Source: an uncultured Thermoleophilia bacterium
GTDB lineage: Bacteria; Actinomycetota; Thermoleophilia; UBA2241
Length of the DNA stretch: 64,000 nt
Direction: 5' to 3'
NCBI GenBank assembly: GCA_963777895.1
Contig: CAVZSF010000005.1
Span: 391,949 to 455,948 of the forward strand
Below are positions 16,671-55,824 of the stretch, one piece after another. Below the pieces are notes generated by a model. It was not told the DNA's origin. It ran no database searches and saw nothing but the letters and a program-made list of their open reading frames with translations. How positions within the stretch are numbered: position 1 is the stretch's first letter; each line of letters begins with the position of its first letter. The position numbers were made by a program, and so were the translations under genes.

Positions 16671-16674
16671 CCGC

Positions 16675-17772
<1,098 letters not shown>

Positions 17773-17791
17773 AAAGCGAGGGAGGGCGAGC

Positions 17792-18742
17792 ATGGACATG
17801 CGCAGGCTCGGTCCTGACGGGCCGCCCATCTCGGTGGTGGGATTCGGCTCGTGGGAGGCCGGCGGCAGCGAGTGGGGGCCGAACGACTCCGACGAGCAGG
17901 TCGTCGCCGCCATGCACGCCGGCTTCGATGCCGGGATGAACTGGATCGACACCGCCGAAGTGTACGGACCGCACCGGTCGGAGGAGCTTGTCGGCCGGGC
18001 CGTGGCCGGGCGCGACGACATCATGGTGTTCACCAAGGTCGCGCCCGATGAGCCCGGCTCGGGAGGGTCCGGCTTCCGCCCCGATCAGGTCAAGCGCGCG
18101 ATCCGCGACTCGCTGTCACGGCTCCGAAGAGATCACGTCGACCTCTACCAACTGCACTGGCCGGACCACAGCGGCGTGCCCATGGAGGACACCTGGGGCG
18201 CCATGGCGGAGATCCAGGACGAGGGCCTCGCGCGCCACATCGGCGTGTCGAACTTCAGTCGCGAGCGGATCGAGCGCTGCCTCGCGATCCGGCAGGTCGA
18301 TTCGGTCCAGAACGAGCTCTCTCTGGTGGTCCGGGACGACCGCGCGGAGCTCCTCCCCTGGCTGGCAGCGCGTGGCATCACCTACTTCGCCTACTCGCCG
18401 ATGGGGGCGGGGATGCTCACCGGGGCGCTGAAGCCCGGCCATGTCTTCGCCGACGACGACTGGCGCAGCGGCAGGCTATGGGAGGACGAGGAGCAGCACG
18501 AGGCCTTCCGGCCCGGCGCGTTCGAGGAGAACCTCGGGCGCGTGGAGCGGCTGCGCGCGCTCGCGGAGCGCCTCGGCGCCACCGTGGCGGCACTGGCGCT
18601 GCGCTGGGTCGTCGAGGCGGGGGCCACGACGGTGGCCATCGCCGGCAGCCGCGATCCAGCGCACGCGCGATCGAACGCGGCCGCCGGCGAGCTTCGTCTG
18701 GATACGGCCGCCATCGCGGAGATCGACGCCATCTTCAGCTAG
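17792..18742 (+). CDS. Aldo/keto reductase
   Basis: Motifs WIDTAEVYG, LYQLHWPD and IGVSNF. A gagggag RBS precedes the start. Confidence 0.85.
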   Translation: MDMRRLGPDGPPISVVGFGSWEAGGSEWGPNDSDEQVVAAMHAGFDAGMNWIDTAEVYGPHRSEELVGRAVAGRDDIMVFTKVAPDEPGSGGSGFRPDQVKRAIRDSLSRLRRDHVDLYQLHWPDHSGVPMEDTWGAMAEIQDEGLARHIGVSNFSRERIERCLAIRQVDSVQNELSLVVRDDRAELLPWLAARGITYFAYSPMGAGMLTGALKPGHVFADDDWRSGRLWEDEEQHEAFRPGAFEENLGRVERLRALAERLGATVAALALRWVVEAGATTVAIAGSRDPAHARSNAAAGELRLDTAAIAEIDAIFS

Positions 18743-21424: not shown

Positions 21425-23088
21425 GCGGACCCATGCCCTTGAGCCGATCCGTGCCACGGCCGCAGGCTCGAGCAGACGCGCAGCAACAAGGAGACGCCGA
21501 GAGGACCGTCGCCCACCAGCACGATGACGTCGCGTTGCTGCCGGCGACTCTGCCGGGGACGCGCGAGTGGACGCTGCGGTTCTCGCGCGCGACCGTGATC
21601 GCGGGCGCCGTCGCTCTGGTGGCGGCGCCCGCGATCGTCCTGCGCGTCTGGCACCTCGGAGCGCTCGGCTTCAACAGCGACGAGGCGGTCTACGCCGGCC
21701 AGGCCGCGGCCATCATCGGCCATGATCCGCTCAGTCAGATCTTCCCCGTGTTCCGGGCGCACCCGCTGCTCTTTCAGATGCTCATCTCGGTCGTCTATGA
21801 GTTCCACGTGGGCGATCTCGCGCCGCGGCTTCTGGCCGTGGCGTTCGGGCTCGCCACCGTCGCGGCCGGCTATGGGCTTGGGACCAGGATCTACGGCCGG
21901 ACGGCGGGCATTCTCACGGCGCTCCTTCTGGCGGTCATGCCGTACCTCGTCGTGGTCAATCGCCAGGCGCTGCTCGACGGGCCGATGGCCTTCTTTTCGG
22001 TGGCGGCGCTGTGGCTGCTCGCACGGTTCGCGGCCGAAGGCAACAAGCTCTTCCTGTACGCCGCCGGCGCGACGCTCGGACTCGCCTTCCTGAGCAAGGA
22101 GACGGCCATCCTGCTGGTGCCGGCCGTGTACGCCTTCCTGGCCGTGACGCCGAGCGTGCGCGTCGCGTTCAAGGACCTGGTCCTGTCACTCGCCTCCTTC
22201 GCCGTCGTCGCCGTCATCTACCCGATCTCGCTGACGCTCGCCGGTGGTTCGAGCACGGGCTCCAACTTCCTCACGTGGCAACTGTTCAGGCGGGCCAACC
22301 ACGCCTGGACCTTCTACCCCAGCGTGGTGCCGCCCGCCCTCGGCATCCCCGTGGTGGTCCTCGCCGTGGTGGCCGTCGTGCTGACCGTCGCGCGGCGCCG
22401 CTGGAGCTGGAGGGAGTCGTTGCTCGTGTGCTGGATCGTCGTGCCCGTCTTCTTCTTCCAGCTCTGGCCGGTGAAAGGGTTCCAGTACCTGCTGCCTGTT
22501 GCCGCGCCCGTGGCCGTTCTCGCCGCCGGCGTCATGGGCGAGTTCGTGCGGAGCGACTGGCCGAGCATGCAGCGGCGACGCCTGGGGCGATGGCTGCGCG
22601 AAGGCGCCGTGGCGGCCGTCGTCGTCACGCTCGCCGTCACCTCGTGGACGACCATCAACCCGGCGAACGCGACCAGCTTCCTGGCCGGCACCGGCGGGGT
22701 CCCCGGCGGGCGACAGGCCGGGCTCTGGGTGCGCGCGAACACGCCCCTGGGCTCGGAGATCCTCTCGATCGGCCCGTCCATGGCCAACATCATCCAGTTC
22801 TACGGCTGGCGCCAGGTGCGCGGCCTCTCCGTCAGCCCCAACCCGCTGCATCGCAACCCCGCCTACACGCCCGTGGACAACCCCGATCTGCTGCTGCGCA
22901 GCGGTCAGGTCCAGTACCTGGTGTGGGACGCCTACTCGGCGGCGCGCAGCAACTACTTCTCGGAGCGGCTCATGACCTATGTCCGCCGCTACCAAGGGCA
23001 CGTCGTGCACGTCGAGTCCGTGACGGTGGACGGCGCGAACGGGCCCACGACCAAGCCGGTGATCGTGATCTACGAGGTGAGACCGTGA
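21421..23088 (+). CDS. GT39/GT83-type polyprenyl-phosphate-sugar dependent glycosyltransferase (Pmt/ArnT-like)
   Basis: Multi-TM, 555 aa, with a loop-1 acidic motif region. The GTG start overlaps the upstream TGA. Confidence 0.8.
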   Translation: MSGPMPLSRSVPRPQARADAQQQGDAERTVAHQHDDVALLPATLPGTREWTLRFSRATVIAGAVALVAAPAIVLRVWHLGALGFNSDEAVYAGQAAAIIGHDPLSQIFPVFRAHPLLFQMLISVVYEFHVGDLAPRLLAVAFGLATVAAGYGLGTRIYGRTAGILTALLLAVMPYLVVVNRQALLDGPMAFFSVAALWLLARFAAEGNKLFLYAAGATLGLAFLSKETAILLVPAVYAFLAVTPSVRVAFKDLVLSLASFAVVAVIYPISLTLAGGSSTGSNFLTWQLFRRANHAWTFYPSVVPPALGIPVVVLAVVAVVLTVARRRWSWRESLLVCWIVVPVFFFQLWPVKGFQYLLPVAAPVAVLAAGVMGEFVRSDWPSMQRRRLGRWLREGAVAAVVVTLAVTSWTTINPANATSFLAGTGGVPGGRQAGLWVRANTPLGSEILSIGPSMANIIQFYGWRQVRGLSVSPNPLHRNPAYTPVDNPDLLLRSGQVQYLVWDAYSAARSNYFSERLMTYVRRYQGHVVHVESVTVDGANGPTTKPVIVIYEVRP

Positions 23089-24503
23089 TCCGGCGCCTCA
23101 GGGTCCTGCGTGGCGCCGGCGTGGTCGTGGCGGCGCTCGGCGTCGCGGCGGCGCTGTCGCTCGCGCTGGTCATCCTGCCCGCGCGCGTCAGCGCCGCCTC
23201 GGCCGTCCCGAAGACGCCGATCGAGCACTTCGTCGTGCTGATGCAGGAGAACCACACCTTCGACAACTACTTCGGCACGTACCCGGGCGCCGACGGGATC
23301 CCGAAAGGCGCGGCCATGCCGGCGGATCCGGCGGCGAGCACGACTCGCCTGGTGCGACCGTTTCACATCGGCGATCGGTCGATCCTGGACCTCGGACACG
23401 ACGGCGCCTCGGCGACGGTCGCCTACAACGACGGTCGCATGGACGGGTTCATCAAAGCCCAGGTCCAGCAGGGGGCCCTCGCCGACCTGGCGATGGGGTA
23501 CTACGACGATCGCGACGTGCCCTACTACTGGAACATGGCCGACCGCTTCGTGCTGTTCGACCGGTTCTTCACGTCCGAGCTGGGCGGGAGCTTCCTCAAC
23601 CACGTGTACTGGGTTGCGGCGGCGCCGGGGAACGGTGCCACTGCGCGTCCGCCCGAGGAGCTGCGTGTCACGACGATCTTCGACCGGCTCGAGCAGGCGG
23701 GTGTCTCGTGGAAGTTCTACATCCAGAACTACGACCCGTCGGTGACGTACCGCACGGTGCTGAGCTCCAGGACGGAGGGAGCCGGGACCGACGCAGCTGG
23801 GACGGAGGGCGGTACCTCACAGACGGTCTGGTGCCCCTTGCTGAACATATCCCGCTTCCTCGACGACCCCGGGCTGAACCGCCACATCGTCGATCTGGAC
23901 GAGTATTACAGGGACCTGCGGAAGGGCACCTTGCCCGCGGTCGCCTACATCGTGCCGTCCGGGGCCAGCGAGCATCCCCCGGGAAGCCTCTTCGCCGGGC
24001 AGAAGATGGTGCGCGGCCTGGTGAACGGGCTCATGGCGAGCAGCGCCTGGGACAGCTCGGCCTTCCTGCTGGCGTACGACGACTGGGGCGGCTGGTACGA
24101 CCATGTCCGCCCGCCGAGGCGCGATCTCTACGGGAACGGCTTCCGCGTGCCGGCGCTGCTCGTGAGCCCGTACGCGCGCTACGGCTACATCGACCACACC
24201 ACACTCGACTTCACCTCGATCCTGAAGTTCATCGAGCAGAACTGGACCATCCGCCCGCTCTCGCGGCTGGACGCGACCGCCGGCAGCATGATGGGCGCCT
24301 TCGACTTCGACCAGGCGCCCCGGGAAGCCGCGATCATCCCGCTCGAGCGGGGCATGCCGCTGTCTGACCGGTCCGTGTCGAACACCTTCCTTTACGGGCT
24401 CTATGGGTTGGCGTCGGTCGTCGCGCTGCTGCTCATCGTCGTGGTGGCGGTGCGGCGGCGCTTCCCGCGCAGGACCCTGCGGTGGGGAGGCGGAGTCCGA
24501 TGA
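23085..24503 (+). CDS. Phosphoesterase family protein (PLC/AcpA-type, PF04185-like), membrane anchored
   Basis: Motifs IEHFVVLMQENHTFDNYFGTYPG and AYDDWGGWYDH. An N-terminal signal/TM is present and a C-terminal TM reads LYGLASVVALLLIVVVAV. GTGA overlaps the upstream gene. Confidence 0.75.
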   Translation: MIRRLRVLRGAGVVVAALGVAAALSLALVILPARVSAASAVPKTPIEHFVVLMQENHTFDNYFGTYPGADGIPKGAAMPADPAASTTRLVRPFHIGDRSILDLGHDGASATVAYNDGRMDGFIKAQVQQGALADLAMGYYDDRDVPYYWNMADRFVLFDRFFTSELGGSFLNHVYWVAAAPGNGATARPPEELRVTTIFDRLEQAGVSWKFYIQNYDPSVTYRTVLSSRTEGAGTDAAGTEGGTSQTVWCPLLNISRFLDDPGLNRHIVDLDEYYRDLRKGTLPAVAYIVPSGASEHPPGSLFAGQKMVRGLVNGLMASSAWDSSAFLLAYDDWGGWYDHVRPPRRDLYGNGFRVPALLVSPYARYGYIDHTTLDFTSILKFIEQNWTIRPLSRLDATAGSMMGAFDFDQAPREAAIIPLERGMPLSDRSVSNTFLYGLYGLASVVALLLIVVVAVRRRFPRRTLRWGGGVR

Positions 24504-25750
24504 GGCTCGGATCGCGCCTGCGCCGTAGTGACGCCGGCCCGCGGCTGCGCCGTGTTGACGCCGGCCCGCGGCTGCGCCTGCCGGCGCTCGCCGGCGTTGC
24601 CGTGCTTCTGGCCGTGCTGCTCGTCGCCTGGGCGTCGCCGGCGCGGGCGTCCGCGGCGCCGGCGACGCTCACGTTGCAGACCGTCCCTCGGCTCGACGGC
24701 GCGCGGATCGCGTTTGACGGCCGCACGTATGTCACGGGCCCGACTGGCTTCGTCTCCATCTCCACGTCTTCTGGGACTCACGAGATCGGTGCCGCTCGGC
24801 CTGCCTCAATGCCGGCGGCGATCTTCGTGCGCTTCGGCCGCTGGCTCGATGGGGGCGTCGCGAGGCGGCGTAGAGTCACCCTCCACGCCGGCACCAACCA
24901 CGAGCAGGTGGGGTTCGTCCTCGCGCGTCCGGTGTCCCTGTCGGTGGGCGACCCCTCTGGTGGCGACATCCCGCTCACGAGCATCAGCCGCATCGAACTG
25001 ACGGGCAGCCGCGGCCAGCGCGTCGTGTTCGAGCCGCCCCAAGCCCGGGCGAGATTCGACGTGAACTACCTCGTGCGCAAACCCGGTGGCCTCGTGTCGC
25101 TCCCGCTGCGCTACCGCCTCCAGGCCGTGATCATGCACGGGGCCAACGTCGTACACGAGGGCGACCAATCCTTCTTCGTGCGGAAGGGTGAGGACTGGCG
25201 CATCCAGGCCCTGGTCTTCCCCCTGCGCATCGAGGTGCGCGACGCGCTGTTCGGGTTCGGCATCGGGCATACCGTCCGGCTTGTGTTCCCGGACGGCACG
25301 ACCCGGAAGGTCACCCTGGACGGCGACAACAGGGCGGTCGTGGCCGGGTTGCCCAGGGGTCTGTACCGGCTCGTGCCGGAAGGACCCGGCTTCGGCCTCT
25401 CGTCGCCGACCGCGCTCTCCCGGCCGCAGCTCGCCGACCTGCTGATCTTCAGCTGGCTCGACATCATCGCCGTGGTCGGGTTCGCAGCCCTCTTCATCGT
25501 CGGCCTGCCGATCCTCGGAGGGCGGCTCGTGCGGCGCGCCGGGTCGCGTCTGCCCGCCTGGCGCAGCACTTCTCGCGACGAAGCCAAAGCCCAGCCTGGC
25601 GGCGCCTCCGGCGCCCAGCCGACGACCGAGGTCAGGATCAACCCGGACACGAAGGCGATCTCCGCCGGCCCCGCCGCGAGCGAGGGCGCCGGAGCGCTTG
25701 ACCACCAGAAGACGGCGCCGGGCCAGCGCTTCCAGGGGTGGAAGCGATGA
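24500..25750 (+). CDS. Hypothetical exported membrane-anchored protein
   Basis: The ATGA start overlaps the upstream stop. A signal peptide and a C-terminal TM are present. Third codon positions are GC-rich. No recognisable domain was found. Confidence 0.5.
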   Translation: MRLGSRLRRSDAGPRLRRVDAGPRLRLPALAGVAVLLAVLLVAWASPARASAAPATLTLQTVPRLDGARIAFDGRTYVTGPTGFVSISTSSGTHEIGAARPASMPAAIFVRFGRWLDGGVARRRRVTLHAGTNHEQVGFVLARPVSLSVGDPSGGDIPLTSISRIELTGSRGQRVVFEPPQARARFDVNYLVRKPGGLVSLPLRYRLQAVIMHGANVVHEGDQSFFVRKGEDWRIQALVFPLRIEVRDALFGFGIGHTVRLVFPDGTTRKVTLDGDNRAVVAGLPRGLYRLVPEGPGFGLSSPTALSRPQLADLLIFSWLDIIAVVGFAALFIVGLPILGGRLVRRAGSRLPAWRSTSRDEAKAQPGGASGAQPTTEVRINPDTKAISAGPAASEGAGALDHQKTAPGQRFQGWKR

Positions 25751-26952
25751 ACGGCGGCGGTACGACGATCGGAGGAACGCGGCGCCTGGTCGGCGCCGCC
25801 GTGATCGCGGTCGCGGCGGCGGTCATCCTGATGACCCTGTCCGCGACCGCCTCGGCCGCGTCGCCGGCCGCGAGCCCGGCGTCCGGCGGCTCTGGCTCGC
25901 CCGCGCCGGCCTCCCCGGCGACGGCGCCGTCCTCGGCGGCCACCGCCGGTCAGGCGGCCGTCCCCGTCCCCGTCCTGGCCTACTTCTACATCTGGTTCGA
26001 CCCGAGCTCGTGGAACCGGGCCAAGATCGACTATCCGGCACTGGGACGCTACTCCTCGGACGACGTCACGATCATGCGCCGGCAGATCAGCCTCGCGAAG
26101 AAGGCCGGCATCGACGGCTTCCTCGTGGGCTGGAAGGAGGCGCCTCACCTCGACCACCGGCTCGCCGCGCTCGTCAAGGCGGCGCGGCAGGCGCACTTCA
26201 AGCTCGGCCTCGTGTTCCAGGGGCTGGACTTCTCGAGGAAGCCGCTGCCGATGACCCAGGTGCGGCGGAGCTTCGCGTACTTCACCGCACACTACGCCAA
26301 GAACCCTGCCTTTGACCTGTTCGGCAAACCGGTCGTGATCTGGTCCGGAACGTGGATGTACACGCGGAAGCAGATGGCGTCGGTCACGAGCAAGTACGGG
26401 GACCGGCTGACGATCCTGGCTTCCGAGAAGCACCCGGACGATTACAAAGCCGTCGCCGGCCTGTTCGCCGGCGACGCCTACTACTGGTCGTCCGTCGACC
26501 CCCTGACCACGCCCGGGTACGAGCAGAAGCTGCAGGCCTTCGCGGAGACCGTGCACCGCGAGGGAGGGCTCTGGTTCGCGCCGGCAGCACCCGGGTTCGA
26601 CGCGCGCCTCATCGGCGGCAGCCGCGTGATACCGCGGCGCGACGGAGAGACGCTGAAGCGCTCGATGGAGGCGGCACTCTCGTCGTCGCCCGACGCCATC
26701 GCGGTGATCAGCTGGAACGAGTACAGCGAGAACACCATGGTGGAACCCAGCCGGAAGTACGGCTCAACGGCGCTGAAGGTCATCGCGGCCATCCAGCACG
26801 CCGACGCCGGGGCGATCCCGAACTTCGATTCCAGCGGCCCGCCGGGCTTCAGCTCGGGACCGAGCCAGTTGCTCATCCCGGGCGCGATGGTCCTCGTACT
26901 CGTCATGAGCGCGACGGTGATCGTCCTGCGGACGACGCGCGGACGACCGTGA
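25747..26952 (+). CDS. GH99-like TIM-barrel glycoside hydrolase (endo-alpha-mannosidase-like fold), with an N-terminal signal/TM and a C-terminal TM
   Basis: Reads AYFYIWFDPSSW...LGRYSSDD...AGIDGFLVGW...ISWNEYSENT, compared with GH99 FYYLWYG / TSFNEWHEGT. Confidence 0.55.
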   Translation: MNGGGTTIGGTRRLVGAAVIAVAAAVILMTLSATASAASPAASPASGGSGSPAPASPATAPSSAATAGQAAVPVPVLAYFYIWFDPSSWNRAKIDYPALGRYSSDDVTIMRRQISLAKKAGIDGFLVGWKEAPHLDHRLAALVKAARQAHFKLGLVFQGLDFSRKPLPMTQVRRSFAYFTAHYAKNPAFDLFGKPVVIWSGTWMYTRKQMASVTSKYGDRLTILASEKHPDDYKAVAGLFAGDAYYWSSVDPLTTPGYEQKLQAFAETVHREGGLWFAPAAPGFDARLIGGSRVIPRRDGETLKRSMEAALSSSPDAIAVISWNEYSENTMVEPSRKYGSTALKVIAAIQHADAGAIPNFDSSGPPGFSSGPSQLLIPGAMVLVLVMSATVIVLRTTRGRP

Positions 26953-27653: not shown

Positions 27654-28253
27654 TCACGATGGGCTACGCTCGTCCGTCAGCGACCGCGGCGAGGGTCGAG
27701 TCGGAGCCGAACGGGGCCGGCGGCGGGGCGCGTCGCGGGTGAGGATCCGGTACGACGCGGCGAAGACGATGGCCGCCAGCGCCGCCAGAGAGGTCAGCGT
27801 GTAGACGCTCCTGGACGTGTCGGTCCCGGCGAGCGCCGCGTGGACGCTCACTGCCCAAAAGGCCCAGTAGCTGGCGATGTGGACGTCGCGCCACCACTTC
27901 TTCGAGAGCCGCTTCATGGCCAGTGCGGTCCCTTCCACGGCGACCAGCAGCCAGAGGGCGACCACGCCAACGGCGATCGCCGTCGGTCTCCACGAGCTCG
28001 CGTAGGGGATGAGAACGTCGAGCGCGCGGAAGTGGGCGTGACGGTCGGCGAGGAGGGTGGCGAGGTGGCCGGCGACGAAGAAGACGGTGAGGCCGGCCAG
28101 CCACCTGTGCAGGTCGAGCAGCCAGGCGGGACGCCGCCATCTCGGAAACAGGTCCGTCGCCAGCACGATCCCCCAGAGCACCGAGGCGGTCAGCATGAGG
28201 TAGGCCACGATGCCTGACGCGCGGCAGAGGAACCACCAGGTCTGTGCGGTCAT
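27654..28253 (-). CDS. Ferric reductase-like transmembrane component (MsrQ/YedZ-like heme-b membrane protein)
   Basis: 199 aa, about 6 TM, with conserved His positions (HRWLAGL, AGHLATL, HAALAG). It overlaps the ApbE stop by 4 nt. Confidence 0.65.
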   Translation of the reverse strand: MTAQTWWFLCRASGIVAYLMLTASVLWGIVLATDLFPRWRRPAWLLDLHRWLAGLTVFFVAGHLATLLADRHAHFRALDVLIPYASSWRPTAIAVGVVALWLLVAVEGTALAMKRLSKKWWRDVHIASYWAFWAVSVHAALAGTDTSRSVYTLTSLAALAAIVFAASYRILTRDAPRRRPRSAPTRPSPRSLTDERSPS

Positions 28254-29179
28254 GCCGTTCTCCTTTCTCCCGCGAGAAGGCCTTCGAAGTCGGGACTGGT
28301 CACGGTCACCCCATCAAGCGTCATCGCGATGCCCTCGAGGCTGTGCAGCTCCAAGTAGTCGAGCACCCGGCCGCTCCCACAGAGCAGGGCGCCGGTGGCG
28401 TGCGCCTCGGCCTCCCAGCCGGCGCGTGCCACGACGGTCACGCCGGCGAGGTCGGTCGCCGCGCAGTTGCGGGTCTCCGGGTCGATGGCATGGTGACGGG
28501 GGATGCCGTGCCTGAGCCAGCGACGAGACAGCGTGCTCGACGTCGCGACGCCGCCGGCTTCGAGGCCGAACGTGAGCAGCGGCGTATCCGGGTCGCGCGG
28601 GTCTTCGACGACCACCGGCCAGCCGTCGGCTGTCGGCGGCTTGCCGGCGGCGGCGAGGTCACCGCCCACGGCGATGAGAGCGCCGGCCGTGCCCCCCCCG
28701 AGAAGCTCGGTGACGACGATGTCGGCGGCGAGGCCCTTGCCGATGCCGCCCGGGTCGAGACCGATGCCGGGCGGGACGGTGACGACGCCGGTGGAAGACT
28801 CGACCGTGACATCGTCGATCGTGAGCCCCGACGCCGGCCGGGTGGTCCCGCGACTCCGTCTGCAAGAGCCGTCCGTGCTCGCTGTGTAGCCCGCGGCGAC
28901 GATAGCGTCGAGCATGGTCGGGTCGTAGCGGCCGCCCGTCACGCGCCACGCCTCCTTCATCGTGAAAAGCAGCGTGTGAGACTCCGAAGAGACGAGCATG
29001 AGCCCGCCTGCCGTCTCGTTCAGCCGCGACACGTCGCTGGTCGCCCGGAACCGGCTCCAGCGCGCCTCGAGATCCTCGAGACGGCGGCGGGCGTAGGCGC
29101 CCGCGCCCTGCGCCGGGTCGACCAGCACGACCTGCGTGCGGCTGGCCATGACCCGGAACTCGAGCTCAGCGACTGCCAC
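28250..29179 (-). CDS. apbE: FAD:protein FMN transferase (ApbE family)
   Basis: Motifs TGGRYDPT, LDPGGIGKG and GDL. About 300 aa. Confidence 0.85.
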   Translation of the reverse strand: MAVAELEFRVMASRTQVVLVDPAQGAGAYARRRLEDLEARWSRFRATSDVSRLNETAGGLMLVSSESHTLLFTMKEAWRVTGGRYDPTMLDAIVAAGYTASTDGSCRRSRGTTRPASGLTIDDVTVESSTGVVTVPPGIGLDPGGIGKGLAADIVVTELLGGGTAGALIAVGGDLAAAGKPPTADGWPVVVEDPRDPDTPLLTFGLEAGGVATSSTLSRRWLRHGIPRHHAIDPETRNCAATDLAGVTVVARAGWEAEAHATGALLCGSGRVLDYLELHSLEGIAMTLDGVTVTSPDFEGLLAGERRTA

Positions 29180-29606
29180 CGGTGCTCGCGACGGGGGCGG
29201 CTGGGGCGGCCGCAGCCGACGCCGGCCCGGACGAGTAGCCGGACGACGTAGCGCCCCTCACGTTCACCGTGTGCACGACCGCGCGCGGGGTCAGGACGAT
29301 CGGGCGAGGTATGGCCGCGGCGGCCAGGCGGGCGCGCGCGGCGGCGCCCCGGACGGCCGCAGCGTCGTCATGCTGCGACGTCGTCGGTGCCGCCACCTTG
29401 TTCGTGCCATGGGTCCAGCCGGCATTGACCTCCATGGTGCTGACCAGCCCCAGCATCGCGGCCACGCCGATCCCGGTCGCCGCGATGCGCGACCGCGCCG
29501 CCGGGTGGCGGCGCCGGTCGGGACGACCCGGATCCGGACGCACGGACTGGGGGGAAGATGAGTCGTGGAGTGGCGCTTGGCCGGCGAAAGGTGTCGCGTC
29601 AGTCAT
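29166..29606 (-). CDS. Small membrane-anchored exported protein carrying a VRGATSSG motif (possible ApbE flavinylation site)
   Basis: Strongly GC-rich third codon positions in this frame. An N-terminal TM reads IAATGIGVAAMLGLV. The C-terminal GAT[S]S resembles the [S/T]GA[S/T] FMN-attachment motif. Confidence 0.4.
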   Translation of the reverse strand: MTDATPFAGQAPLHDSSSPQSVRPDPGRPDRRRHPAARSRIAATGIGVAAMLGLVSTMEVNAGWTHGTNKVAAPTTSQHDDAAAVRGAAARARLAAAAIPRPIVLTPRAVVHTVNVRGATSSGYSSGPASAAAAPAAPVASTGGSR

Positions 29607-30174
29607 CGGCCTCTCCTCCTGAGCCTTCATCGCCGGCGGGACGGTAGGAACTGGCCGACGCCGTGCCGGTCGCCGGCGTCGCGCTCGAGTAGGTGGATCC
29701 GCCCGAAGATGCCAGCGACGGGACCACTCTGGTGACCGGCTCGTCGACTCGGGCCACGATCGAGCTGTGGCCACCCAAGGCAGCTCGGAACACGTACGTC
29801 TTCGAGCCGGACCGGAAGGTCACGGTCAATCTCTTGTCGGCGGTCTGCTCGAGCGCCCATGTCCAGCCATGGCCGGCCTTCACGTCGACGAGCCGCAGCG
29901 CGCCCCTGCCGGCCGCGACGTTCACCGTGCCGGCCTTCTTGATGACGTACTCCTGCGTGCCGCTGGCGTCCGCACCTGCGGCGGTCTTCCCGCTCGCGTG
30001 CGCGCGCACCGCCTTCGTCGTACTCGTCTGGACGACAGTCGCCGCCGACAGTGTGCCGACGGGCCGCGAATCGGCGGCGTTGAGGATGCCGAGGTTGGCG
30101 CCGGCGGCGATGGCCGCGGCCAGGACCACGACAGCGATCGAGGCCGCCGTGATCAGGGCGGTGCGATGTCCCAT
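29599..30174 (-). CDS. Hypothetical secreted / N-terminally anchored protein
   Basis: The N-terminal TM reads MGHRTALITAASIAVVVLAAAIAAG. 191 aa with no recognised domain. It is co-directional with the ApbE module. Confidence 0.4.
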   Translation of the reverse strand: MGHRTALITAASIAVVVLAAAIAAGANLGILNAADSRPVGTLSAATVVQTSTTKAVRAHASGKTAAGADASGTQEYVIKKAGTVNVAAGRGALRLVDVKAGHGWTWALEQTADKRLTVTFRSGSKTYVFRAALGGHSSIVARVDEPVTRVVPSLASSGGSTYSSATPATGTASASSYRPAGDEGSGGEADD

Positions 30175-30242
30175 GGTTCTCCTCTCCGTAAGACTCCGGC
30201 GGGTAGCGTAGCGACGGCGGGGCAACGGAAGGCCCAACGGGG

Positions 30243-30260
30243 GGTAAGCGTTTGGTAAAG
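30243..30260. promoter_or_regulatory. Conserved 18-mer GGTAAGCGTTTGGTAAAG, copy 2, about 36 nt upstream of the response-regulator gene
   Basis: Matches the motif at 19476-19493. Confidence 0.4.
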
Positions 30261-30295
30261 ATGTCTCGTCGTGAGTTCCGTGCGAACATGGCGTC

Positions 30296-30964
30296 ATGCG
30301 ACTCCTGGTCGTAGAGGACGACGCCGGCATCGCCGAGCCGCTCCGCAGCGGTCTGCTTCGTGAAGGGTTCGAGGTCGAGCTGGTGGGAACCGGCGCCGAT
30401 GCCCTCGCGGCCAGCGCCTGCGACCTGGTTCTGCTCGACCTCGGTCTGCCCGACCTGGACGGCAGGGCGGTCTGCCGCAGCCTGCGCGAGCGGTCCGGCG
30501 TGCCGATCATCGTGATCAGCGCGCGGTCGGAGGAGATCGATCGCGTGACGCTGTTCGAGCTCGGAGCCGACGACTACGTCGTCAAGCCGTTCGGGTTCCT
30601 CGAGCTTGTGGCGCGCATCCGCGCCGTCCTGCGGCGGACGGGGGGCGACGCTCCTCCGGTCCGCGGCGCTTCTGTCGAGTTCGGGCTGCTGCGGATCGAC
30701 GCACGCACCAGGGAGGTGGCCTACGCCGGCCGACACGTCGCGCTGACGCCGAGGGAGTACGACCTGCTGGTCTGTCTCGCCGACGACCCGGGCGCCGTCC
30801 GCACGCGCGAGCAGATCTTCGGCGATGTGTGGGACGAGAACTGGTGGGGCTCAACCAAGACCCTGGACGTGCACATCGCATCGCTTCGGCGCAAGCTCGG
30901 AGCCGACGTCATCGAGACCGTGCGCGGGGTGGGCTTTCGTCTCGTCGACGTCACCGCGCAGTGA
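30296..30964 (+). CDS. OmpR-family two-component response regulator
   Basis: Receiver domain MRLLVVEDD...DLVLLDLGLPDLDG plus a winged-helix C-terminus. Confidence 0.9.
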   Translation: MRLLVVEDDAGIAEPLRSGLLREGFEVELVGTGADALAASACDLVLLDLGLPDLDGRAVCRSLRERSGVPIIVISARSEEIDRVTLFELGADDYVVKPFGFLELVARIRAVLRRTGGDAPPVRGASVEFGLLRIDARTREVAYAGRHVALTPREYDLLVCLADDPGAVRTREQIFGDVWDENWWGSTKTLDVHIASLRRKLGADVIETVRGVGFRLVDVTAQ

Positions 30965-32343
30965 CCCGACGGCTCCTCTTCAGCTACCTGGTCATCACGG
31001 CCATCGTGCTCGTCGCGCTCGAAGTCCCGCTGGCGCGCTTCTACCAGCAGCGCGAGACGGGGCGCCTGACCATGGGCGTCGAGCGGGACGCGACAGTGCT
31101 CGCCGGACTCTATGAAGAGGACCTCGAGACGGGGGCTCCCCTGGACGCGTCGGTTGCCGCCAGCTACGCCGACCATTCGGGGGCCAGAGTAGTGGTGGTG
31201 GATGCGAGCGGGACGTCGCTGGTCGACACGGCCGGCTCGTCGGGCCGCGACTTCTCGACCCGTCCGGAGATCAAGGTCGCGCTGCACGGTCTGCACGCGA
31301 CAGGCGTGCGCGCCTCTCGGACGCTCGGCACGCGCCTGTTGTACGTCGCCGTGCCGTCCGCCTCCGGAGGACACGTGCACGGCGCCGTCCGCCTCACGCT
31401 CGATACGGCCGCGGTGGACGCCGCCGTCCATCGCTTCTGGCTCGGCTTGGCGGCGATCGCCGCCGTGGTGCTCGCGGTTATGGCCGGCGTCGGCTGGGCG
31501 CTCGCTCGTTCGGTGACCCGGCCGCTCAGGCGTCTCAACGTGGCAGCCGCCCGGTTCGCCACCGGGGACCTGCGGGTCGCCGAACCAGACCCTCAGGCGC
31601 CGCCCGAGATCGCGGCGCTGGGCACGACCATGAACACCATGGCCCAGCGCCTGGAGCACCTGCTCGCGGAGCACCGCGCGTTCGTGGCCGACGCCTCGCA
31701 CCAGCTGCGCACGCCGCTGACGGCGCTGAGACTGCGCTTGGAGAATCTCCAGAACGATCTCTCCGGCTCCAGGCAAGCTGAGGATCTGGGCGCGGCGGTC
31801 GAAGAGACGAACCGGCTGACCCTTCTCGTGAGCGACCTGCTCAGGCTGGCGAGAGCCGAGCAGGCGGCTGCTCACGAGACGGCCGACCTTGTGGAACGAG
31901 CGCGCGAACGCGTGGACACCTGGTCGGCGACGGCCGAATCGGCCGGCGTCACCCTGGACTTCGTCCCTCCGGCCGGCGTCGTGGCCGTCCGCGTCGTGCC
32001 GAGCGGCGTCGAGCAGATCCTGGACAACTTGATCGACAACGCGATCGCCGCGTCGCCGCCGGGCGGGACGGTCTCCGTGACGGTCGCTGCGGGCGCGCGC
32101 GAGCATCGCCTGAGCGTCGTCGACCAAGGGGCTGGGCTGCCGGACGAGCTCAAGGCACGGGCGCTCGACCGCTTCTGGCGGTCAGACGACGCGACACCCG
32201 GCACCGGGCTCGGCCTGCCGATAGCCAGGGCGCTGGCAGAGGCGTCGGGTGGATCCCTCGTGCTGGTGGACGGCCCCGACGGCGGCCTCGCCGTGACCGT
32301 GACCCTTCCCCGGACCACACCATCTCCGGCCCAGAGAGCGTAG
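30961..32343 (+). CDS. Two-component sensor histidine kinase
   Basis: Two TM segments, HAMP, an H-box ADASHQLRTPLT and HATPase motifs DNAIAAS, GTGLGL. GTGA overlaps the RR stop. Confidence 0.9.
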   Translation: MTRRLLFSYLVITAIVLVALEVPLARFYQQRETGRLTMGVERDATVLAGLYEEDLETGAPLDASVAASYADHSGARVVVVDASGTSLVDTAGSSGRDFSTRPEIKVALHGLHATGVRASRTLGTRLLYVAVPSASGGHVHGAVRLTLDTAAVDAAVHRFWLGLAAIAAVVLAVMAGVGWALARSVTRPLRRLNVAAARFATGDLRVAEPDPQAPPEIAALGTTMNTMAQRLEHLLAEHRAFVADASHQLRTPLTALRLRLENLQNDLSGSRQAEDLGAAVEETNRLTLLVSDLLRLARAEQAAAHETADLVERARERVDTWSATAESAGVTLDFVPPAGVVAVRVVPSGVEQILDNLIDNAIAASPPGGTVSVTVAAGAREHRLSVVDQGAGLPDELKARALDRFWRSDDATPGTGLGLPIARALAEASGGSLVLVDGPDGGLAVTVTLPRTTPSPAQRA

Positions 32344-32606: not shown

Positions 32607-33267
32607 TCACGGGGCAGCCGACTCCGGCGGTCCTGGCGGCGCGGAGAACTCGTCGATCGCGTTCTGGCTGAGCGGATGCTCGGTCAGGGCAGCCAGCACG
32701 CCGAGCGGCGCCGTGACGTCGTGGGCGCCGCGCGCCACCGAGGCGGCGAGCTGCTCGGAGGTCTTGAGGCTGGCGGCCAGGACGCGGGTGCTGCTGCGCA
32801 GCGCTCGCAGCACGGCCGCCAGCTCCTCCACCAGCTCGAGCCCGTCGACGCCCTGCCGGGTCGCGCGGTCGACGTAGGGGATCGCCCACGCGCAGCCGAT
32901 CTCGTGGGCGACCAGCGCCTGGGCCGGCGCGTAGACGGCGGTGAGCGCGTGGCGGATGCCTTCACGGGTGAGGGCCGCGCCGACGCGGACCGCGTCGCCG
33001 GTCGCGGCCAGCTTGATCACCACGCGCTCCGGTGAGAGCGCGGCGGCCATGCGCGCTTCCGTCAGCAGGTCGTCGAACGGAGCCATCGCAGGTTGGTAGA
33101 AGACGGGACCGCGTGGGAAGGCGGCGAGGAGACGGCCGAGCCGGTCGAGCGGCTCGGCCGTCTCCCGCCGCATGAGCGTCGGGTTCGTGGTGACGCCGCC
33201 GACGAAGCCGAGCCCCGCGGCTGCCGCGGCGTCGTCCGAGCGATGCGGAATCGAGCAAGATCGTCAT
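32607..33267 (-). CDS. Fructose-6-phosphate aldolase / transaldolase-like (TalC/FSA family), one frameshift
   Basis: MTILLDSASL...(frame change near 33235)...GGVTTNPTLM...VIKLAATGDAV...SLKTSEQ. Confidence 0.7.
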
Positions 33268-33457
33268 GCTTGTGTCGTCTCCTCCCGGCCGCCGGTCAGT
33301 CCGCGGCGTCGTCGCTGCCTCTGGGCTGCATCATCGCCCCTGACGCGCCCGACGGCAAAACAGCGAGACGGAAGGGACGACGGACCGTCGCGCACAGGAG
33401 CTGCGAGCCGCGAGCGGTACTATGGGATGGCACAGCCGTCGAGCCCGGAAGGTGACC

Positions 33458-34411
33458 ATGACCGAGGCCATCCGCGTCGAGAGACTGAGCAAGGCGTTCG
33501 GTGCGACGCAGGCCCTGGACGGACTGGACCTCCATGTCAAGGCGGGGCAGATCCACGGCTTCATGGGTCCGAACGGGGCAGGCAAGTCGACGACGCTCCG
33601 CATCCTGCTCGGCCTGCTGCGCGCCGATGCGGGTCTGGCGGAGGTCCTGGGCGGTGACCCCTGGAAGGACGCGACCGAGCTGCATCGCCGGCTCGCCTAC
33701 GTCCCCGGAGAGGTCAACCTCTGGCCGAGCCTGACCGGGGGCGAGGTCATCGACCTGCTGGGGCGGCTGCGCGGCGGGCTCGACCCGAAGCGCCGCGCCA
33801 TGCTGCTCGAGCGGTTCGACCTGGACCCCAGCAAGAGGGGCCGCGCCTACTCGAAGGGCAACCGCCAGAAGGTGGCGCTCATCGCCGCGCTCGCCTCCGA
33901 CGTCGAGCTGCTGCTGCTGGACGAACCGACCGCCGGTCTCGATCCGCTGATGGAGGCCGTCTTTCGTGAGTGCGTCAACGAAGAACGAGACGGCGGACGC
34001 ACGGTGCTCCTTTCGAGCCACATCCTCGCGGAGGTCGAGGCGCTCTGCGACCACGTGAGCATCATCCGCAGTGGTCGCATCGTCGAGACCGGGACGCTGG
34101 CCGAGCTGCGGCACCTGCGCCGGACGACGGTCGTGGCGAGTCTGGCCGGCCCCGCCGAGGGCCTGGCCGGCCTGGCGGGCGTCCACGACCTCGTCGTCGA
34201 CGATTCCACCGTGCGCTGCGAGGTCGACCCGGGTCACCTGGACGAGGTCCTGCGCGCCCTTACTGCCGTCGGGGTGCGTGACCTCGTGAGTCAGCCGCCG
34301 ACCCTGGAGGAGCTCTTCCTGCGACACTACGACGTCGCATCCTTACCGGCTCCGCCGGGCGAGACGCCGACAGCGGGCATCGGCGGCCGGCGCGACGCGT
34401 CCGCCTCGTGA
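33458..34411 (+). CDS. ABC transporter ATP-binding protein (ABC-2/DrrA-like exporter ATPase)
   Basis: Walker [12 protein letters not shown], signature YSKGNRQKV and Walker [13 protein letters not shown]. Confidence 0.85.
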
Positions 34412-36003
34412 ACGTCCTGGCCGGCACGTGGGCGCTGGTGCGCCTCGCCCTGCGGAGAGACCGGATCATCCTGCCCGTCTGCATCGCCGTCTTCGTGATC
34501 GTCGTGGCGAGTTCGACGAAGGCGACGGTCGCACTGTATCCGTCGCCCCAGACCCGCATGGTGGCGGCGGCGAGCGTCAACGACAGTCCCGCGCTTGTCG
34601 CCTTGTACGGACGCATCTACGACGAGCGCTCGCTCGGTGCGATCGCGATGATGAAGATGGGCGGCACGGGGACGGCACTGGTCGCGGTGCTCACCCTGCT
34701 CACCGTCGTGAGGCACACGAGGAGCGAGGAAGAGAGCGGCCGTCTCGAGCTGCTCGGCGCGACCGTCGTGGGGCGCTACGCGCCGCTCACGGCCGCACTG
34801 CTCGTCGCGACCGGAGCCAGCCTCATGCTCGGGACCTTCACCGCGCTGGGCCTGGTGGCGGTGGGGTTACCGCCCGGCGGGTCGCTCGCGTTCGGCGCCG
34901 CGTGGGCCGGCGTCGGGATCGCCTTCGGAGCCGTCGCCGGCCTTGCGGCGCAGCTCAGTAGGAGCGCCCGCACCGCGGGGGGCATCGCCGCCATCGGCCT
35001 CGGCGCCGCCTACCTCGTGCGCGCCCTCGGCGACACCCGTCCCGAGGGTGGGGCGCGCTGGCTCGCATGGTTGTCACCGCTGGGCTGGGGACAACAGGTG
35101 CGCGCCTTCGCCGGCGACCGCTGGTGGGTGCTCGCCCTGCTGCTGGCCTTCGGCGTCCTGACCACGGTGGCCGCCTACGCCGTCGCATCTCGCAGGGACC
35201 TGGGCGACGGCGTGTTGCCCGACCGGCCCGGTCCGGCGCGCGCCTCGTTTCGTCTCGGCACGGCGCTCGGCTTGGCCTGGCGCCTGCAACGGGGCGGCGT
35301 CGTGGCCTGGTGCCTGGCCTTGCTCGTCATCGGCGCCGTCCTGGGCAGCGCGGTGTCGAACATCGGCGCGCTGCTCGACAGCCCGCAAGCTCGCGAGTAC
35401 GTGCGACTCCTGGGCGGCGAGAAGGTCATCACCGATGCCTTCCTCGCCGCCGAGATGGGGATCATGGGGCAGATAGCGGCCGTGTTCGGGCTGCTCGCGG
35501 CTACGCGCCTGCGCTCGGAGGAGGTCGCGGTGCGCGCCGAGCCGGTCCTCGCGACCGCGGTGGGCCGCGTGCGCTGGGCGAGCAGCCATCTCGCCGTCGC
35601 CCTGATGGGCACGGCGCTGCTGCTCGCCTCCGCCGGCTTGGCCGCCGGCGTCGCCCATGCCGCCCAGACCGGCGATGCGGGCCAGGTCGGCCGCGTGCTC
35701 GCCGCCGCGCTGGTCCAGCTGCCGGCCGTCTGGGTGCTGGTCGGCATCGCGGCGGCAGGTTTCGGTCTGGTGCCACGCTGGACGGCGGCCGGCTGGGCCG
35801 CCCTCGTCGTCTTCTTCCTGCTCGGCGAGCTGGGGCCGGTCTTCGAGCTGGACCAGTGGGTCACGGACCTCTCGCCCTTCGCGCACGTACCCAAGCTGCC
35901 GGGGGCGGACGTCAGCGCGGCGCCGTTGCTCTGGCTGACGGCCGCCGCCGCCGCCCTCATCGCCGTGGGTCTCGCCGGCTTCCGGCGGCGCGACGTCGGC
36001 TGA
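34408..36003 (+). CDS. ABC-2 family transporter permease (12 TM, duplicated)
   Basis: 531 aa hydrophobic protein translationally coupled to the ATPase. Confidence 0.7.
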
Positions 36004-40843: not shown

Positions 40844-42034
40844 TTACTGGGCCAGAGTCCAGTCTCCGCCCTTGATCTCGTACATGGAGAGGTCGTCCAC
40901 CGTCATGCCGTTGTGGTCCGTGGGGGAGAACGTGAACGTTCCGCCGATGCCGACGAAGCCGGAGGTCGCCTCGATCTGATCGCGCAGGGCCGCGGGCGTG
41001 ACATCGCCGTCGATGCGCTTGGCGGCCTCGACGATGAGGTAGAGGGCGTCGTAGGCGTGCCCGGCGAAGGTGCTCGGGGCGTCGCCGTAGGCCTGTGTGT
41101 AGCGATCGATGAAGTCGGTCGCCACCTTGAACGCTTCCGTGCCCTCGCCGTACGCCTCCGGGATCAGCACCTTGCCGGCGGCGAAGCGCACGCCCTCGGC
41201 GGCGTCGCCGGCGCCTTCGATGAACTCCCTGCGCGCGATGCCATGGCTGCCGAAGAACGGGAGGTCGATGCCGAGATCCATCACGTTCTTGGCGATGGTC
41301 GCGGCCTCGGCCCCGGCGGTCCACATCACGATGGCCTGGGCGTCGGAGTTCTTGATCTTGGTGAGCTGGGCCGTCATGTCGGTGTCGCCCGCGTTGAACG
41401 TCTGGTTCGAGACGATCGTCACGCCCGCATCGGGAGCCATCTTCTCGATGACGGCCTTGCCGTCGGCGCCGAAGCCGCCCGTGTCGGTGATGAGGCCGAT
41501 CTTCGTGATGCCCTGCTGCTTGATGTAGTCCAAGGTGAACGGGACGACGATGGTGTTCGACCAGGGGGTCTGGAAGACGAGCGGGTCGACGGGGTTCGCG
41601 ATCACGGTGCCGCCCGCCATGGAGACCTGGGGGATCTTGGCGCGCTGTACGTCGCCGCGCACCGCCATGGTCGCGCCCGTCCCGGTCCCGCCGATGATGG
41701 CGACGACCTCGTCCTGCTCGATGAGCTTGCTCGCCGCGGCGACCGCCTTGGCGTCGTCGGTCGCGTCGTCCTCGACGATGACCTCGATCTGCCGGCCGTT
41801 GACGCCGCCGGCGTCGTTGATGCGCTTGACCTCCATATCGAGCACGTTCTTCTCGGGCTGTCCGAGACCGGCGTACGTCCCCGTCAAGGAGACGATGGCG
41901 CCGATCTTGAGCGGCGCGCCCGAGCCGCTCGCCGCGGTGTCGTCCCCGCCGCAGGCGGTGAGCGACACCGCCAGCGACGCTGCGAGGGCGGCCGTCAGGA
42001 CCGCCATCGAGAGCTTCAACGTCCGTCCACGCAT
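40844..42034 (-). CDS. livK: Branched-chain/aromatic amino acid ABC transporter substrate-binding lipoprotein (LivK/LivJ-like)
   Basis: The start is at MRGRTLKLSMAVLTAALAASLAVSLTACGG (lipobox). Type I periplasmic binding fold. Confidence 0.8.
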   Translation of the reverse strand: MRGRTLKLSMAVLTAALAASLAVSLTACGGDDTAASGSGAPLKIGAIVSLTGTYAGLGQPEKNVLDMEVKRINDAGGVNGRQIEVIVEDDATDDAKAVAAASKLIEQDEVVAIIGGTGTGATMAVRGDVQRAKIPQVSMAGGTVIANPVDPLVFQTPWSNTIVVPFTLDYIKQQGITKIGLITDTGGFGADGKAVIEKMAPDAGVTIVSNQTFNAGDTDMTAQLTKIKNSDAQAIVMWTAGAEAATIAKNVMDLGIDLPFFGSHGIARREFIEGAGDAAEGVRFAAGKVLIPEAYGEGTEAFKVATDFIDRYTQAYGDAPSTFAGHAYDALYLIVEAAKRIDGDVTPAALRDQIEATSGFVGIGGTFTFSPTDHNGMTVDDLSMYEIKGGDWTLAQ

Positions 42035-42321
42035 GGTGCTGCCTCCGTAGGATCGCTGTCCGCTTCCGCCACGCGACAGGCTCGCAGGCGGCTTCTTCGC
42101 CGGTCCCCCTGGCACCCGGCTGTGAAGTGGTGCGCATAATAACACGCAGTTCAAGCAATAATGGCTGCATCTCCTTGCAGTGGGTTGCGGACGGCCCGCC
42201 TCGGGGGCCCGTGACCGATGGGTCGCGGGACGCCCGCGCTTCCCAACGGGAGTACTGATGGCATAGCAGGGAGAGGCTCGCGCGTGAGACCGTGCGGTGA
42301 AGCTGGAGGAGGAAGGCAGGC

Positions 42322-47222: not shown

Positions 47223-47295
47223 TCTCCTCACCCGCTTGTCAATCGTCCTGCCGGGGGGCAAGATTGGCTGCTCCCCAGCGAAAGGACGACCACCC

Positions 47296-55822: not shown

Positions 55823-55824
55823 CG

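Follow-up and report, generated by a model that had tools for sequence, protein, structure and literature searches.

A conserved six-gene unit of soil actinobacteria that joins ApbE, a ferric-reductase-domain protein and a sensor pair: a candidate transmembrane electron-transfer complex

Introduction

The covalent attachment of flavin mononucleotide (FMN) by ApbE, the FAD:protein FMN transferase (FAD, flavin adenine dinucleotide), is a known way to wire redox chemistry outside the cytoplasm, and published flavinylation surveys have noted that "orphan" apbE genes imply substrates yet to be found. A 64-kb stretch of contig CAVZSF010000005.1 from an uncultured Thermoleophilia bacterium (hereafter, the window), with a G+C content of ~70% across its whole length, carries such a gene at positions 27654-32343, the region analysed here, in which apbE is accompanied by a ferric-reductase-domain (FRD) heme protein, two small membrane proteins and a divergent two-component system. 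The question raised by this locus is which acceptor its ApbE serves, and for what process. The reading that we favour, in which we place about as much belief as doubt, is that of a sensor-induced transmembrane electron-transfer complex with a non-canonical ApbE acceptor. The general idea of a flavin- and heme-based transmembrane electron-transfer unit had already been put forward in a first-pass annotation of this DNA, and it is still the best reading of the locus, whereas several of its particulars had to be replaced. The unit is a clean and widely conserved case of an orphan apbE, and it lies outside the published screen because its ApbE carries no export signal.

Organization of the locus

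The region contains six genes, four on the minus strand and two on the plus strand, separated by a short divergent promoter region. The two small membrane proteins are labelled P3 and P4 throughout.

30174..29599, minus strand: P4, 191 amino acids (aa), with GGAGAGGAG upstream
29606..29166, minus strand: P3, 146 aa, with its ATG within ATGACTGA, which also contains the P4 stop codon
29179..28250, minus strand: ApbE, 309 aa, with a GTG start, overlapping the end of P3 by 14 nt
28253..27654, minus strand: FRD protein, 199 aa, with an ATGA overlap with apbE
30175..30295: divergent promoter region between P4 and the regulator, 121 bp
30296..30964, plus strand: response regulator of the OmpR/PhoB family, 222 aa, with Response_reg and Trans_reg_C domains
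30961..32343, plus strand: sensor histidine kinase, 460 aa, with a GTGA overlap with the regulator and HAMP, HisKA and HATPase_c domains

The genes of P4, P3, ApbE and FRD, all on the minus strand, overlap or abut at their ends and are translationally coupled, in keeping with the four co-directional, overlapping genes described before. The two-component system said to diverge from them is equally real, as all the Pfam domains of the regulator and the kinase listed above score above threshold. The start of the kinase was set at the GTG at 30961, which overlaps the regulator stop and gives a protein of 460 aa.

Conservation of the six-gene unit

The same order, with kinase and regulator divergent from P4, P3, ApbE and FRD, was found in seven loci by exact protein look-up of P3 and P4 relatives, and among those on long contigs the genes that flank the unit are unrelated. 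A scan with the P4 alignment retrieved 71 further metagenome loci, which were annotated with hidden Markov models built from the seven full loci and counted only where the contig reached far enough. In these, P4 is followed by P3 (50/51), ApbE (41/42) and FRD (35/36), and it is preceded by the regulator in all 56 and by the kinase in all 45 informative cases. Such an arrangement is far beyond chance, and the comparison of neighbourhoods across related genomes, which the first-pass annotation had suggested as a check, has thus returned a near-invariant order.

The family of P4 comprises 387 representatives at 50% identity in a large protein library and is therefore broad; as far as sampled, it is always found in the six-gene context. 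Named members are few and consist of Thermoleophilia metagenome-assembled genomes and one Aeromicrobium metagenome-assembled genome. Taken together, the module is a strongly conserved unit of soil actinobacteria. When the single ApbE protein was used to scan a genome collection, the matches listed comprised just two ApbE genes (Bacteroidetes and Pinirhizobacter), both unrelated.

Some copies of the module are damaged, either in the genome or in the assembly. In locus L007 (3806-8601), the regulator is truncated, the kinase is split and both P3 and ApbE are shortened; this copy lies beside an rve_3 transposase gene and appears to be decaying. An apparent ApbE-FRD "fusion" of 501 aa (P0499) was rejected as an assembly artefact, given that the C-terminus of its ApbE is frameshifted and that P4 on the same contig is frameshifted too; locus L010 is likewise full of frameshifts.

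The ferric-reductase-domain protein

The FRD protein matches PF01794 (Ferric_reduct) with 30.7 bits against a cut-off of 28, and hydropathy predicts five hydrophobic helices. Its histidines are arranged in two pairs, His49/His63 (H-x13-H) on helix 2 and His125/His138 (H-x12-H) on helix 4; each of the four is invariant across the seven full loci, and 36 of 38 distinct orthologues contain both motifs. NOX and FRE ferric reductases show this H-x13-H / H-x12-H spacing as their two-heme signature, and by homology with them the two pairs would hold an inner and an outer heme b. Loops rich in Arg and Lys follow helices 1 and 3, and the C-terminal tail is basic. These charges fit a five-helix topology with the N-terminus outside and the C-terminus inside, in which the Arg/Lys-rich loops would be cytoplasmic. 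No FAD or NAD(P)H (reduced nicotinamide adenine dinucleotide, or its phosphate) dehydrogenase domain was detected in the protein with Pfam, and its chain ends ~30 residues past the last helix.

This protein had been introduced as a ferric-reductase or MsrQ-like membrane protein with six transmembrane helices. The assignment to the PF01794 family stands, while the helix count and a close kinship with MsrQ do not: the predicted helices are five, no MsrQ model is found among the NCBIfam matches of the protein, and BLASTP against E. coli MsrQ gives a non-significant E of 0.043 over 38 residues. This short alignment pairs His125 of the FRD protein with His151 of MsrQ, which implies that the FRD protein is devoid of MsrQ helix 1. 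The FRD protein is not an MsrQ orthologue. The absence of an MsrP partner, already stated on first inspection, was upheld, as the conserved unit contains no Oxidored_molyb gene. In one locus only (L003, 15579-16223, minus strand), a gene for a 214-aa Oxidored_molyb protein (PF00174, the Pfam family of MsrP) lies ~5.5 kb downstream of the module, outside the conserved unit.

ApbE and its predicted location

The identity of ApbE is secure, with a match to PF02424 over residues 14-279 (E = 2.4e-42; 145.7 bits against a cut-off of 25.6) and with TM1553 and FmnB as relatives in the PDB (E = 1e-16 to 1e-14). Catalysis has been ascribed to Ser257, His273 and Asp301 in FmnB and to Ser241, His257 and Asp285 in Vc_ApbE (PMC12052999). 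When the protein is aligned to Listeria FmnB (7esa), a Ser and a His coincide exactly with Ser257 and His273, and a Glu takes the place of Asp301; across the family this acidic position is either Glu or Asp, the latter in L003. With the Ser and the His kept and a Glu at the Asp301 position, the enzyme looks catalytically intact.

ApbE had also been taken to operate on extracytoplasmic substrates, an assumption that its N-terminus does not support. No hydrophobic segment is found there (the maximal 19-residue hydropathy within the first 40 residues is 0.93), and the GTG at 29179 is the first start codon past the upstream in-frame stop. The same holds for the family: none of the 39 orthologues whose N-terminus is covered has a signal peptide or a lipobox, and in all 39 the in-frame stretch upstream amounts to 2-6 codons or is Arg/Pro-rich and non-hydrophobic. 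An extracytoplasmic location of ApbE is thus not supported at the level of sequence. Leaderless ApbE enzymes are known, as the one from Klebsiella pneumoniae, which modifies a soluble reductase with a canonical motif (PMC12052999).

The junction between P3 and ApbE (29166-29179 in the window, and 37 others) presents a distinctive feature. In 34 of the 38 distinct junctions, the reading frame of ApbE is shifted by +1 with respect to that of P3, and this bias holds even where 13-166 nt separate the genes; the P3 stop is TGA in 37 of 38. The possibility that P3 provides ApbE with an N-terminal anchor, through fusion or a programmed frameshift, was considered and rejected. The codon before the stop varies (CGC, AGC, CAC, CCC, GGC and others), four junctions are in other frames, no conserved slippery codon is present at the junctions, and none of the 120 closest ApbE relatives exceeds 360 aa, hence no P3-ApbE fusion is found among them. 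An inherited start/stop overlap for translational coupling explains the +1 bias, and a low-level +1 event that yields an anchored P3-ApbE fusion may still take place.

The small membrane proteins P3 and P4

Neither P3 nor P4 has a match in Pfam or NCBIfam, and no consistent Pfam family emerged when 32 P3 relatives and 30 P4 relatives were scanned singly (E <= 0.1). Both are new protein families, which settles the check proposed earlier, whether the protein with the GATSS motif, P3, matches FMN_bind (PF04205) or a novel family, in favour of the latter. The segments of P3 that bear on its function are the following:

29265-29306, minus strand: conserved strand segment RPIVLTP[HR]xVVxxV
29238..29261, minus strand: VRGATSSG, present here in a column that is not conserved in the family
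29169..29195, minus strand: C-terminal tail PVASTGGSR, with the family motif P-V-A-[ST]-[ST]-[GS]-G-S followed by 0-4 residues

P3, for which 84 homologues were found, all of them devoid of a Pfam domain, is a single-pass protein with an Arg-rich N-terminus and a conserved helix at residues 41-60, followed by an Ala-rich helix, the strand segment with its invariant PIVLT core, a low-complexity Gly/Ser-rich tether and a conserved end. The charges around the membrane helix, positive before it and acidic after it, predict by the positive-inside rule that the N-terminus is inside and the C-terminus outside. Most of the AlphaFold2 model of P3 is disordered, and its predicted local distance difference test (pLDDT) score reaches ~80 only at residues 100-110, in the conserved strand, which suggests that P3 may fold against a partner. 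A Tat signal that would allow flavinylation before export appears unlikely from the alignments: an Arg-Arg pair occurs near the helix in most sequences, the residues that follow it depart from the usual twin-arginine pattern, and several sequences are devoid of the pair.

VRGATSSG had been read as a flavinylation motif. It falls within the low-complexity stretch of P3 and reads RGAT instead of [ST]GA[ST]; in 32 aligned relatives its columns are occupied by unrelated Gly, Ser, Ala or Pro residues, and a canonical [ST]GA[ST] occurs in only 9 of 127 distinct P3 sequences, at varying positions. Judged from this alignment, VRGATSSG is a chance feature of one sequence.

The conserved tail is a different matter. 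In 125 of the 127 distinct sequences, the last 12 residues contain a P[VA][AV] core, and nearly all of these sequences go on with the motif; A137, P138, V139, A140, S141, G144 and S145 are at least 90% conserved. This tail is the only conserved flavinylation-like sequence of the module: it resembles the canonical D-x-x-[ST]-G-A-[ST] in the [ST], in the following G or S and in the final hydroxyl residue. Studies on ApbE specificity have reported that flavinylation tags are most effective at protein termini, and that a change of Gly to Ala or of Ala to Val within the motif leaves ~50% flavinylation, while a change of Asp to Ala has little effect (PMC12052999). Additionally, ApbE is known to modify FMN_red proteins on unstructured extensions of their C-terminus (PMC11334425).

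P4 is also a single-pass protein, composed of an N-terminal helix, a variable linker, a beta domain and a Ser/Ala/Pro-rich tail, of which two parts stand out:

30082-30162, minus strand: N-terminal helix MxHRTALITAGSIAAVVFAGAIAVGANLGIL, with the strongest conservation in P4
29719-29964, minus strand: beta domain, residues 71-152, with 8 strands

His3 and Arg4 are invariant at the start of the helix, and Thr5 is nearly so. Since no other segment of P4 is as well conserved, the helix appears to be a functional membrane helix rather than a cleaved signal peptide, and for P4 the label membrane-anchored fits better than secreted. Residues 71-152 of P4 are modelled as an eight-strand beta domain with a pLDDT of 82-92. 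The acidic C-terminus GGE[AQ]DD was considered as a functional tail and set aside, since its sequence is for the most part dictated at the level of DNA, by the GGAGGAG ribosome-binding site and the ATGACTGA start/stop overlap for P3. P4 had first been described as a further N-terminally anchored, secreted protein without a recognisable domain, of which the anchor and the lack of a known domain were upheld. The proposal that both small proteins are undescribed ApbE substrates fares similarly, in that they are anchored and belong to no known family, and the GATSS evidence for P3 fails.

The search for a flavinylation substrate was extended to the rest of the module and its surroundings. In the loci examined, neither ApbE nor the FRD protein nor the kinase contains an [ST]GA[ST] string, the P4 alignment shows none either, and of the seven P3 sequences only that of L007 has one (SGAS). 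Across the long open frames of the window, D..[ST]GA[ST] turns up only once, in a frame rich in Arg that probably does not encode a protein. Known ApbE substrate domains (FMN_bind PF04205, NqrB/RnfD, DUF2271, DUF3570 and the Flavodoxin_4/FMN_red variants) were not found in the conserved neighbours. Two loci, L004 (14497-15084, minus strand) and L006 (9861-10436, minus strand), have an ordinary cytoplasmic FMN_red gene (NAD(P)H-dependent FMN reductase) at a distance of 1-5 kb from the module; the products have no flavinylation-like tail, and the genes are not conserved neighbours. An enzyme of the FMN_red type could in principle act as electron donor.

The two-component system and the divergent promoter

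The best NCBIfam models for the regulator are CseB, CreB and MtrA, all below their cut-offs, and neither the regulator nor the kinase reaches an equivalog model, so that no named orthologue can be assigned to either. The kinase has two helices and, between them, a conserved extracytoplasmic domain of ~120 aa; the pattern of this domain is Cache-like, and Pfam gives a weak sCache_like match.

An alignment of 55 distinct regulator-P4 intergenic regions revealed conserved direct repeats followed by a TAnnnT -10-like element, with an extra 21-bp unit in some loci. In the window they read as follows:

30234..30258, minus strand: operator-like direct repeats TTACC-N6-TTACC-N5-TTGG, upstream of P4

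The repeats are spaced 11 and 10 bp apart. The pattern TTDCC-N6-TWACC-N5-TTGS occurs once in the 64-kb window, where 0 occurrences are expected, and 28 related loci carry it in the corresponding position upstream of P4; as it was derived from these same sequences, the locus counts are descriptive only. No sigma-70 consensus promoter was found. Regulators of the OmpR/PhoB type bind repeats with a period of 10-11 bp, from which we infer that the regulator controls the operon directly through these putative operator repeats.

A sensor-induced electron-transfer complex

The favoured reading, a sensor-induced transmembrane electron-transfer complex with a non-canonical ApbE acceptor, would operate as follows. 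The kinase, with its Cache-like outer domain, would phosphorylate the OmpR-type regulator, which would bind the three direct repeats of the divergent promoter and turn on the four-gene operon. Coupled translation would probably keep the four products in matched amounts, and FRD, P4 and P3 would probably assemble into one membrane complex with the five-helix FRD cytochrome b as its core. On this core, P4 (a helix and an outward beta domain) and P3 (a helix and a disordered outward tether) would pack via their conserved helices, and the P4 helix may replace the first helix of the canonical six-helix FRD proteins. Electrons would pass from a cytoplasmic donor or menaquinol to the inner heme, then to the outer heme and to a site built jointly by P4 and P3, and finally to an extracytoplasmic acceptor, for which Fe(III), O2 or an oxidised envelope component are candidates. 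ApbE would attach FMN covalently to an acceptor of a non-canonical kind, for which the strongest candidate is the final Ser in the conserved tail of P3, PVA[ST][ST][GS]GS; this tail forms a flexible end of the protein, and its coding sequence immediately precedes apbE. Bifidobacterium breve is impaired under iron limitation when a transposon disrupts either apbE or the gene of a ferric reductase that has an FMN-binding domain (PMC5449479), and by analogy iron reduction is a reasonable candidate for the output of the unit.

In its most specific form, which we regard as possible and nonetheless unlikely, the leaderless ApbE puts FMN on a new kind of acceptor. This would be either the terminal Ser of the P3 tail, modified before export or via an unrecognised route, or the cytoplasmic His-Arg-Thr N-terminus of P4. 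The product would be a split, dehydrogenase-less NOX-like complex, with a five-helix, two-heme FRD core and two single-pass subunits, one of which carries the flavin on a flexible tether. If this were the case, the unit would provide ApbE with a new substrate family and a more permissive recognition motif, and it would add a novel architecture of FRD proteins, all under a dedicated sensor.

Several observations weigh against the favoured complex. The leaderless ApbE is predicted to stay inside and the P3 tail to lie outside, which would place the enzyme and its proposed acceptor on opposite sides of the membrane. In the P3 tail, Gly occupies the position of the motif Ala and the Asp is missing, and the module proteins contain no conserved D-x-x-[ST]-G-A-[ST] motif and no FMN_bind, DUF2271 or DUF3570 domain. 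The P4 beta domain has no conserved Cys, His or Met in the family alignment and no known fold relative, and neither an electron donor domain nor an acceptor enzyme is encoded in the unit. Finally, one exceptional locus, L040, keeps the sensor pair and P4 only and continues directly with a transaldolase-like gene, without P3, apbE or FRD.

Alternative explanations

Among the alternatives, the one that survives best, which is still unlikely in our view, places the flavin on the inner side of the membrane. ApbE would act where it is made, attaching FMN to a cytoplasm-facing residue (P4 His3-Arg4-Thr5 or an FRD loop) or docking as an FAD-bearing subunit, and electrons would then enter through the flavin, in place of the missing FAD/NAD(P)H dehydrogenase domain, much as Fre serves MsrQ. 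The family-wide leaderless ApbE, the FRD protein devoid of a dehydrogenase domain, the ATGA overlap of their genes and the precedent of cytoplasmic enzymes such as that of Klebsiella pneumoniae (PMC12052999) are in line with this scheme, and the conserved H3, R4 and T5 of P4 lie at the cytoplasmic boundary. However, no predicted cytoplasmic segment carries a motif that resembles those recognised by ApbE, a redox role for ApbE itself has never been described, and the known cytoplasmic ApbE targets an FMN_bind-type domain, which is absent here.

Rather improbable is a role in signalling, in which P4 and P3, possibly together with the heme protein as redox sensor, modulate the kinase via helix-helix contacts in the manner of YycH/YycI-WalK or HbpS-SenS-SenR. 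The strict linkage to the sensor pair, the unusually conserved helices of the single-pass P4 and P3, the retention of just P4 beside the sensor pair in L040 and the P4 domain with no obvious cofactor ligands would all agree with it. On the other hand, an operon divergent from the sensor genes, with operator-like repeats of its own, is the usual picture of a target operon, and a four-His heme protein and an intact ApbE would be costly for a pure sensor.

We give little credence to the view that the true target of ApbE is a canonical substrate encoded at a distant site of the genome and that apbE is present here for co-regulation only, with P3 and P4 unrelated to flavin. This is what is left of the scenario that the first-pass annotation had named as its own refutation, an ApbE lipoprotein with a distant substrate, of which the lipoprotein part is excluded by the missing lipobox. 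The lack of a canonical motif or substrate domain in the module and in the 64-kb window speaks for it, but apbE is translationally coupled to both of its neighbours and holds its place in 41 of 42 loci, an embedding that is unusually tight for a general maturation factor. Scarcely credible, finally, is the original scheme, with an extracytoplasmic ApbE that flavinylates P3 at VRGATSSG and an MsrQ-like protein from which flavinylated P3 and a second secreted protein take electrons: the string is present in this sequence and P3 adjoins apbE, but the string is neither canonical nor conserved and an ApbE export signal occurs in 0 of 39 orthologues.

Should P3 or P4 prove to be the acceptor, the recognition rule of ApbE would be extended, two families would join the toolkit of flavin/heme electron transfer, and an FRD cytochrome would be shown to work without a fused dehydrogenase.

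Genomic surroundings

The genes around the module were also annotated. A GrpB-family gene (PF04229; 26974-27564, minus strand) flanks it in the window and is found again in L007 (3041-3481). Upstream of the module (22011-26952, plus strand) lie three overlapping genes for envelope proteins. The first product belongs to the Phosphoesterase family (PF04185, E = 2e-74) and carries a hydrophobic tail at its C-terminus, the second (422 aa) matches no family, and the third is GH71/GH99-like by weak matches and has a C-terminal anchor. On the other side (33422-36003, plus strand), a DrrA-like ABC ATPase gene (PF00005 and PF13732) is followed by an overlapping gene for a 531-aa hydrophobic protein with no Pfam family, presumably the permease of this ATPase.

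A short gene similar to transaldolase/fructose-6-phosphate aldolase (PF00923) recurs beside the module in several loci, on either side of it (window 32607-33173, minus strand; L004 9981-10613; L006 8612-9247; L007 10148-10792; L040 6637-7281), which probably reflects a shared genome context rather than a shared function. Most of the window has a G+C content of 0.70-0.74, with lower values (0.66-0.68) at 14001-18000, 42001-44000, 46001-48000 and 54001-64000. An Rfam scan of the window gave no match and, in particular, no FMN riboswitch.

Comparison with known systems

The nearest catalogued kind of system is represented by the "MsrQ-like" flavinylation clusters of Actinobacteria (Meheust et al. 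2021, PMC8238504; Huang et al. 2024, PMC11334425), which are experimentally uncharacterised and are defined by a PF01794 gene that has ApbE, FMN_bind, DUF2271 or DUF3570 no more than five genes away (PMC8238504). The two share a two-heme PF01794 membrane protein beside apbE, an actinobacterial origin and a presumed transmembrane electron transfer. MsrQ-like clusters typically contain an FMN_bind gene, and their MsrQ-like protein often has a fused NAD-binding domain (PMC8238504, PMC11334425), whereas the unit described here has no FMN_bind (PF04205) gene, no NAD-binding fusion and an FRD protein of five helices, and it includes, as fixed members, two new single-pass proteins and a dedicated two-component system. 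Additionally, the published screen demanded a signal peptide or lipidation site in ApbE or in a known substrate (PMC8238504). The FRD gene overlaps apbE and is thus well within the five-gene distance, but ApbE, the only target gene present, is leaderless. With these required or typical features absent, the unit falls outside the published MsrQ-like catalogue. Its first placement among such clusters therefore holds for the PF01794 gene beside apbE, while the catalogue itself would have missed it.

From the perspective of the heme protein, the likeness to NOX and FRE consists of the H-x13-H and H-x12-H pairs on two helices and the basic cytoplasmic loops; the differences are the absence of the FAD/NAD(P)H dehydrogenase domain and one helix fewer. 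From that of ApbE, the cytoplasmic enzyme of Klebsiella pneumoniae, which matures a soluble fumarate reductase, similarly has no signal peptide (PMC12052999). Its target, however, is a canonical motif in an FMN_bind-type domain of that soluble reductase, while the partners of the ApbE described here are membrane proteins and no such reductase is encoded in the unit. The pair formed by SifE and apbE in B. breve also combines a ferric-reductase-type protein with ApbE in an actinobacterium. SifE differs in having an FMN-binding domain and in belonging to an iron-uptake operon to which apbE is unlinked; our unit has neither a transporter nor an FMN-binding domain. As for the proposed acceptor, the P3 tail resembles the C-terminal extensions of FMN_red proteins (PMC11334425) in being a short motif on an unstructured C-terminal tail. 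Those extensions are canonical-like and stand beside a flavin-binding fold, whereas the P3 tail ([ST][GS]GS) is borne by a protein without a flavin-binding domain.

Finally, the general design recalls that of the hprRS and hiuH-msrP-msrQ genes of E. coli, where a kinase and an OmpR-type regulator are likewise divergent from an operon that ends in a small FRD-family heme protein without a dehydrogenase, and where HprSR (YedVW) induces msrPQ upon exposure to hypochlorous acid (10.1101/2021.09.09.459708, PMC9302797). The actinobacterial unit has no MsrP molybdoenzyme and no HiuH, and its ApbE, P3 and P4 have no E. coli counterpart; between the sensor pair and HprSR the similarity is that of generic family members, with 25% and 35% identity. 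As the E. coli proteins are not orthologous, the analogy is one of design only. If the unit were a stress-induced envelope system comparable to HprSR-MsrPQ, it would point to an actinobacterial function in envelope redox or repair for which there is no characterised enzyme.

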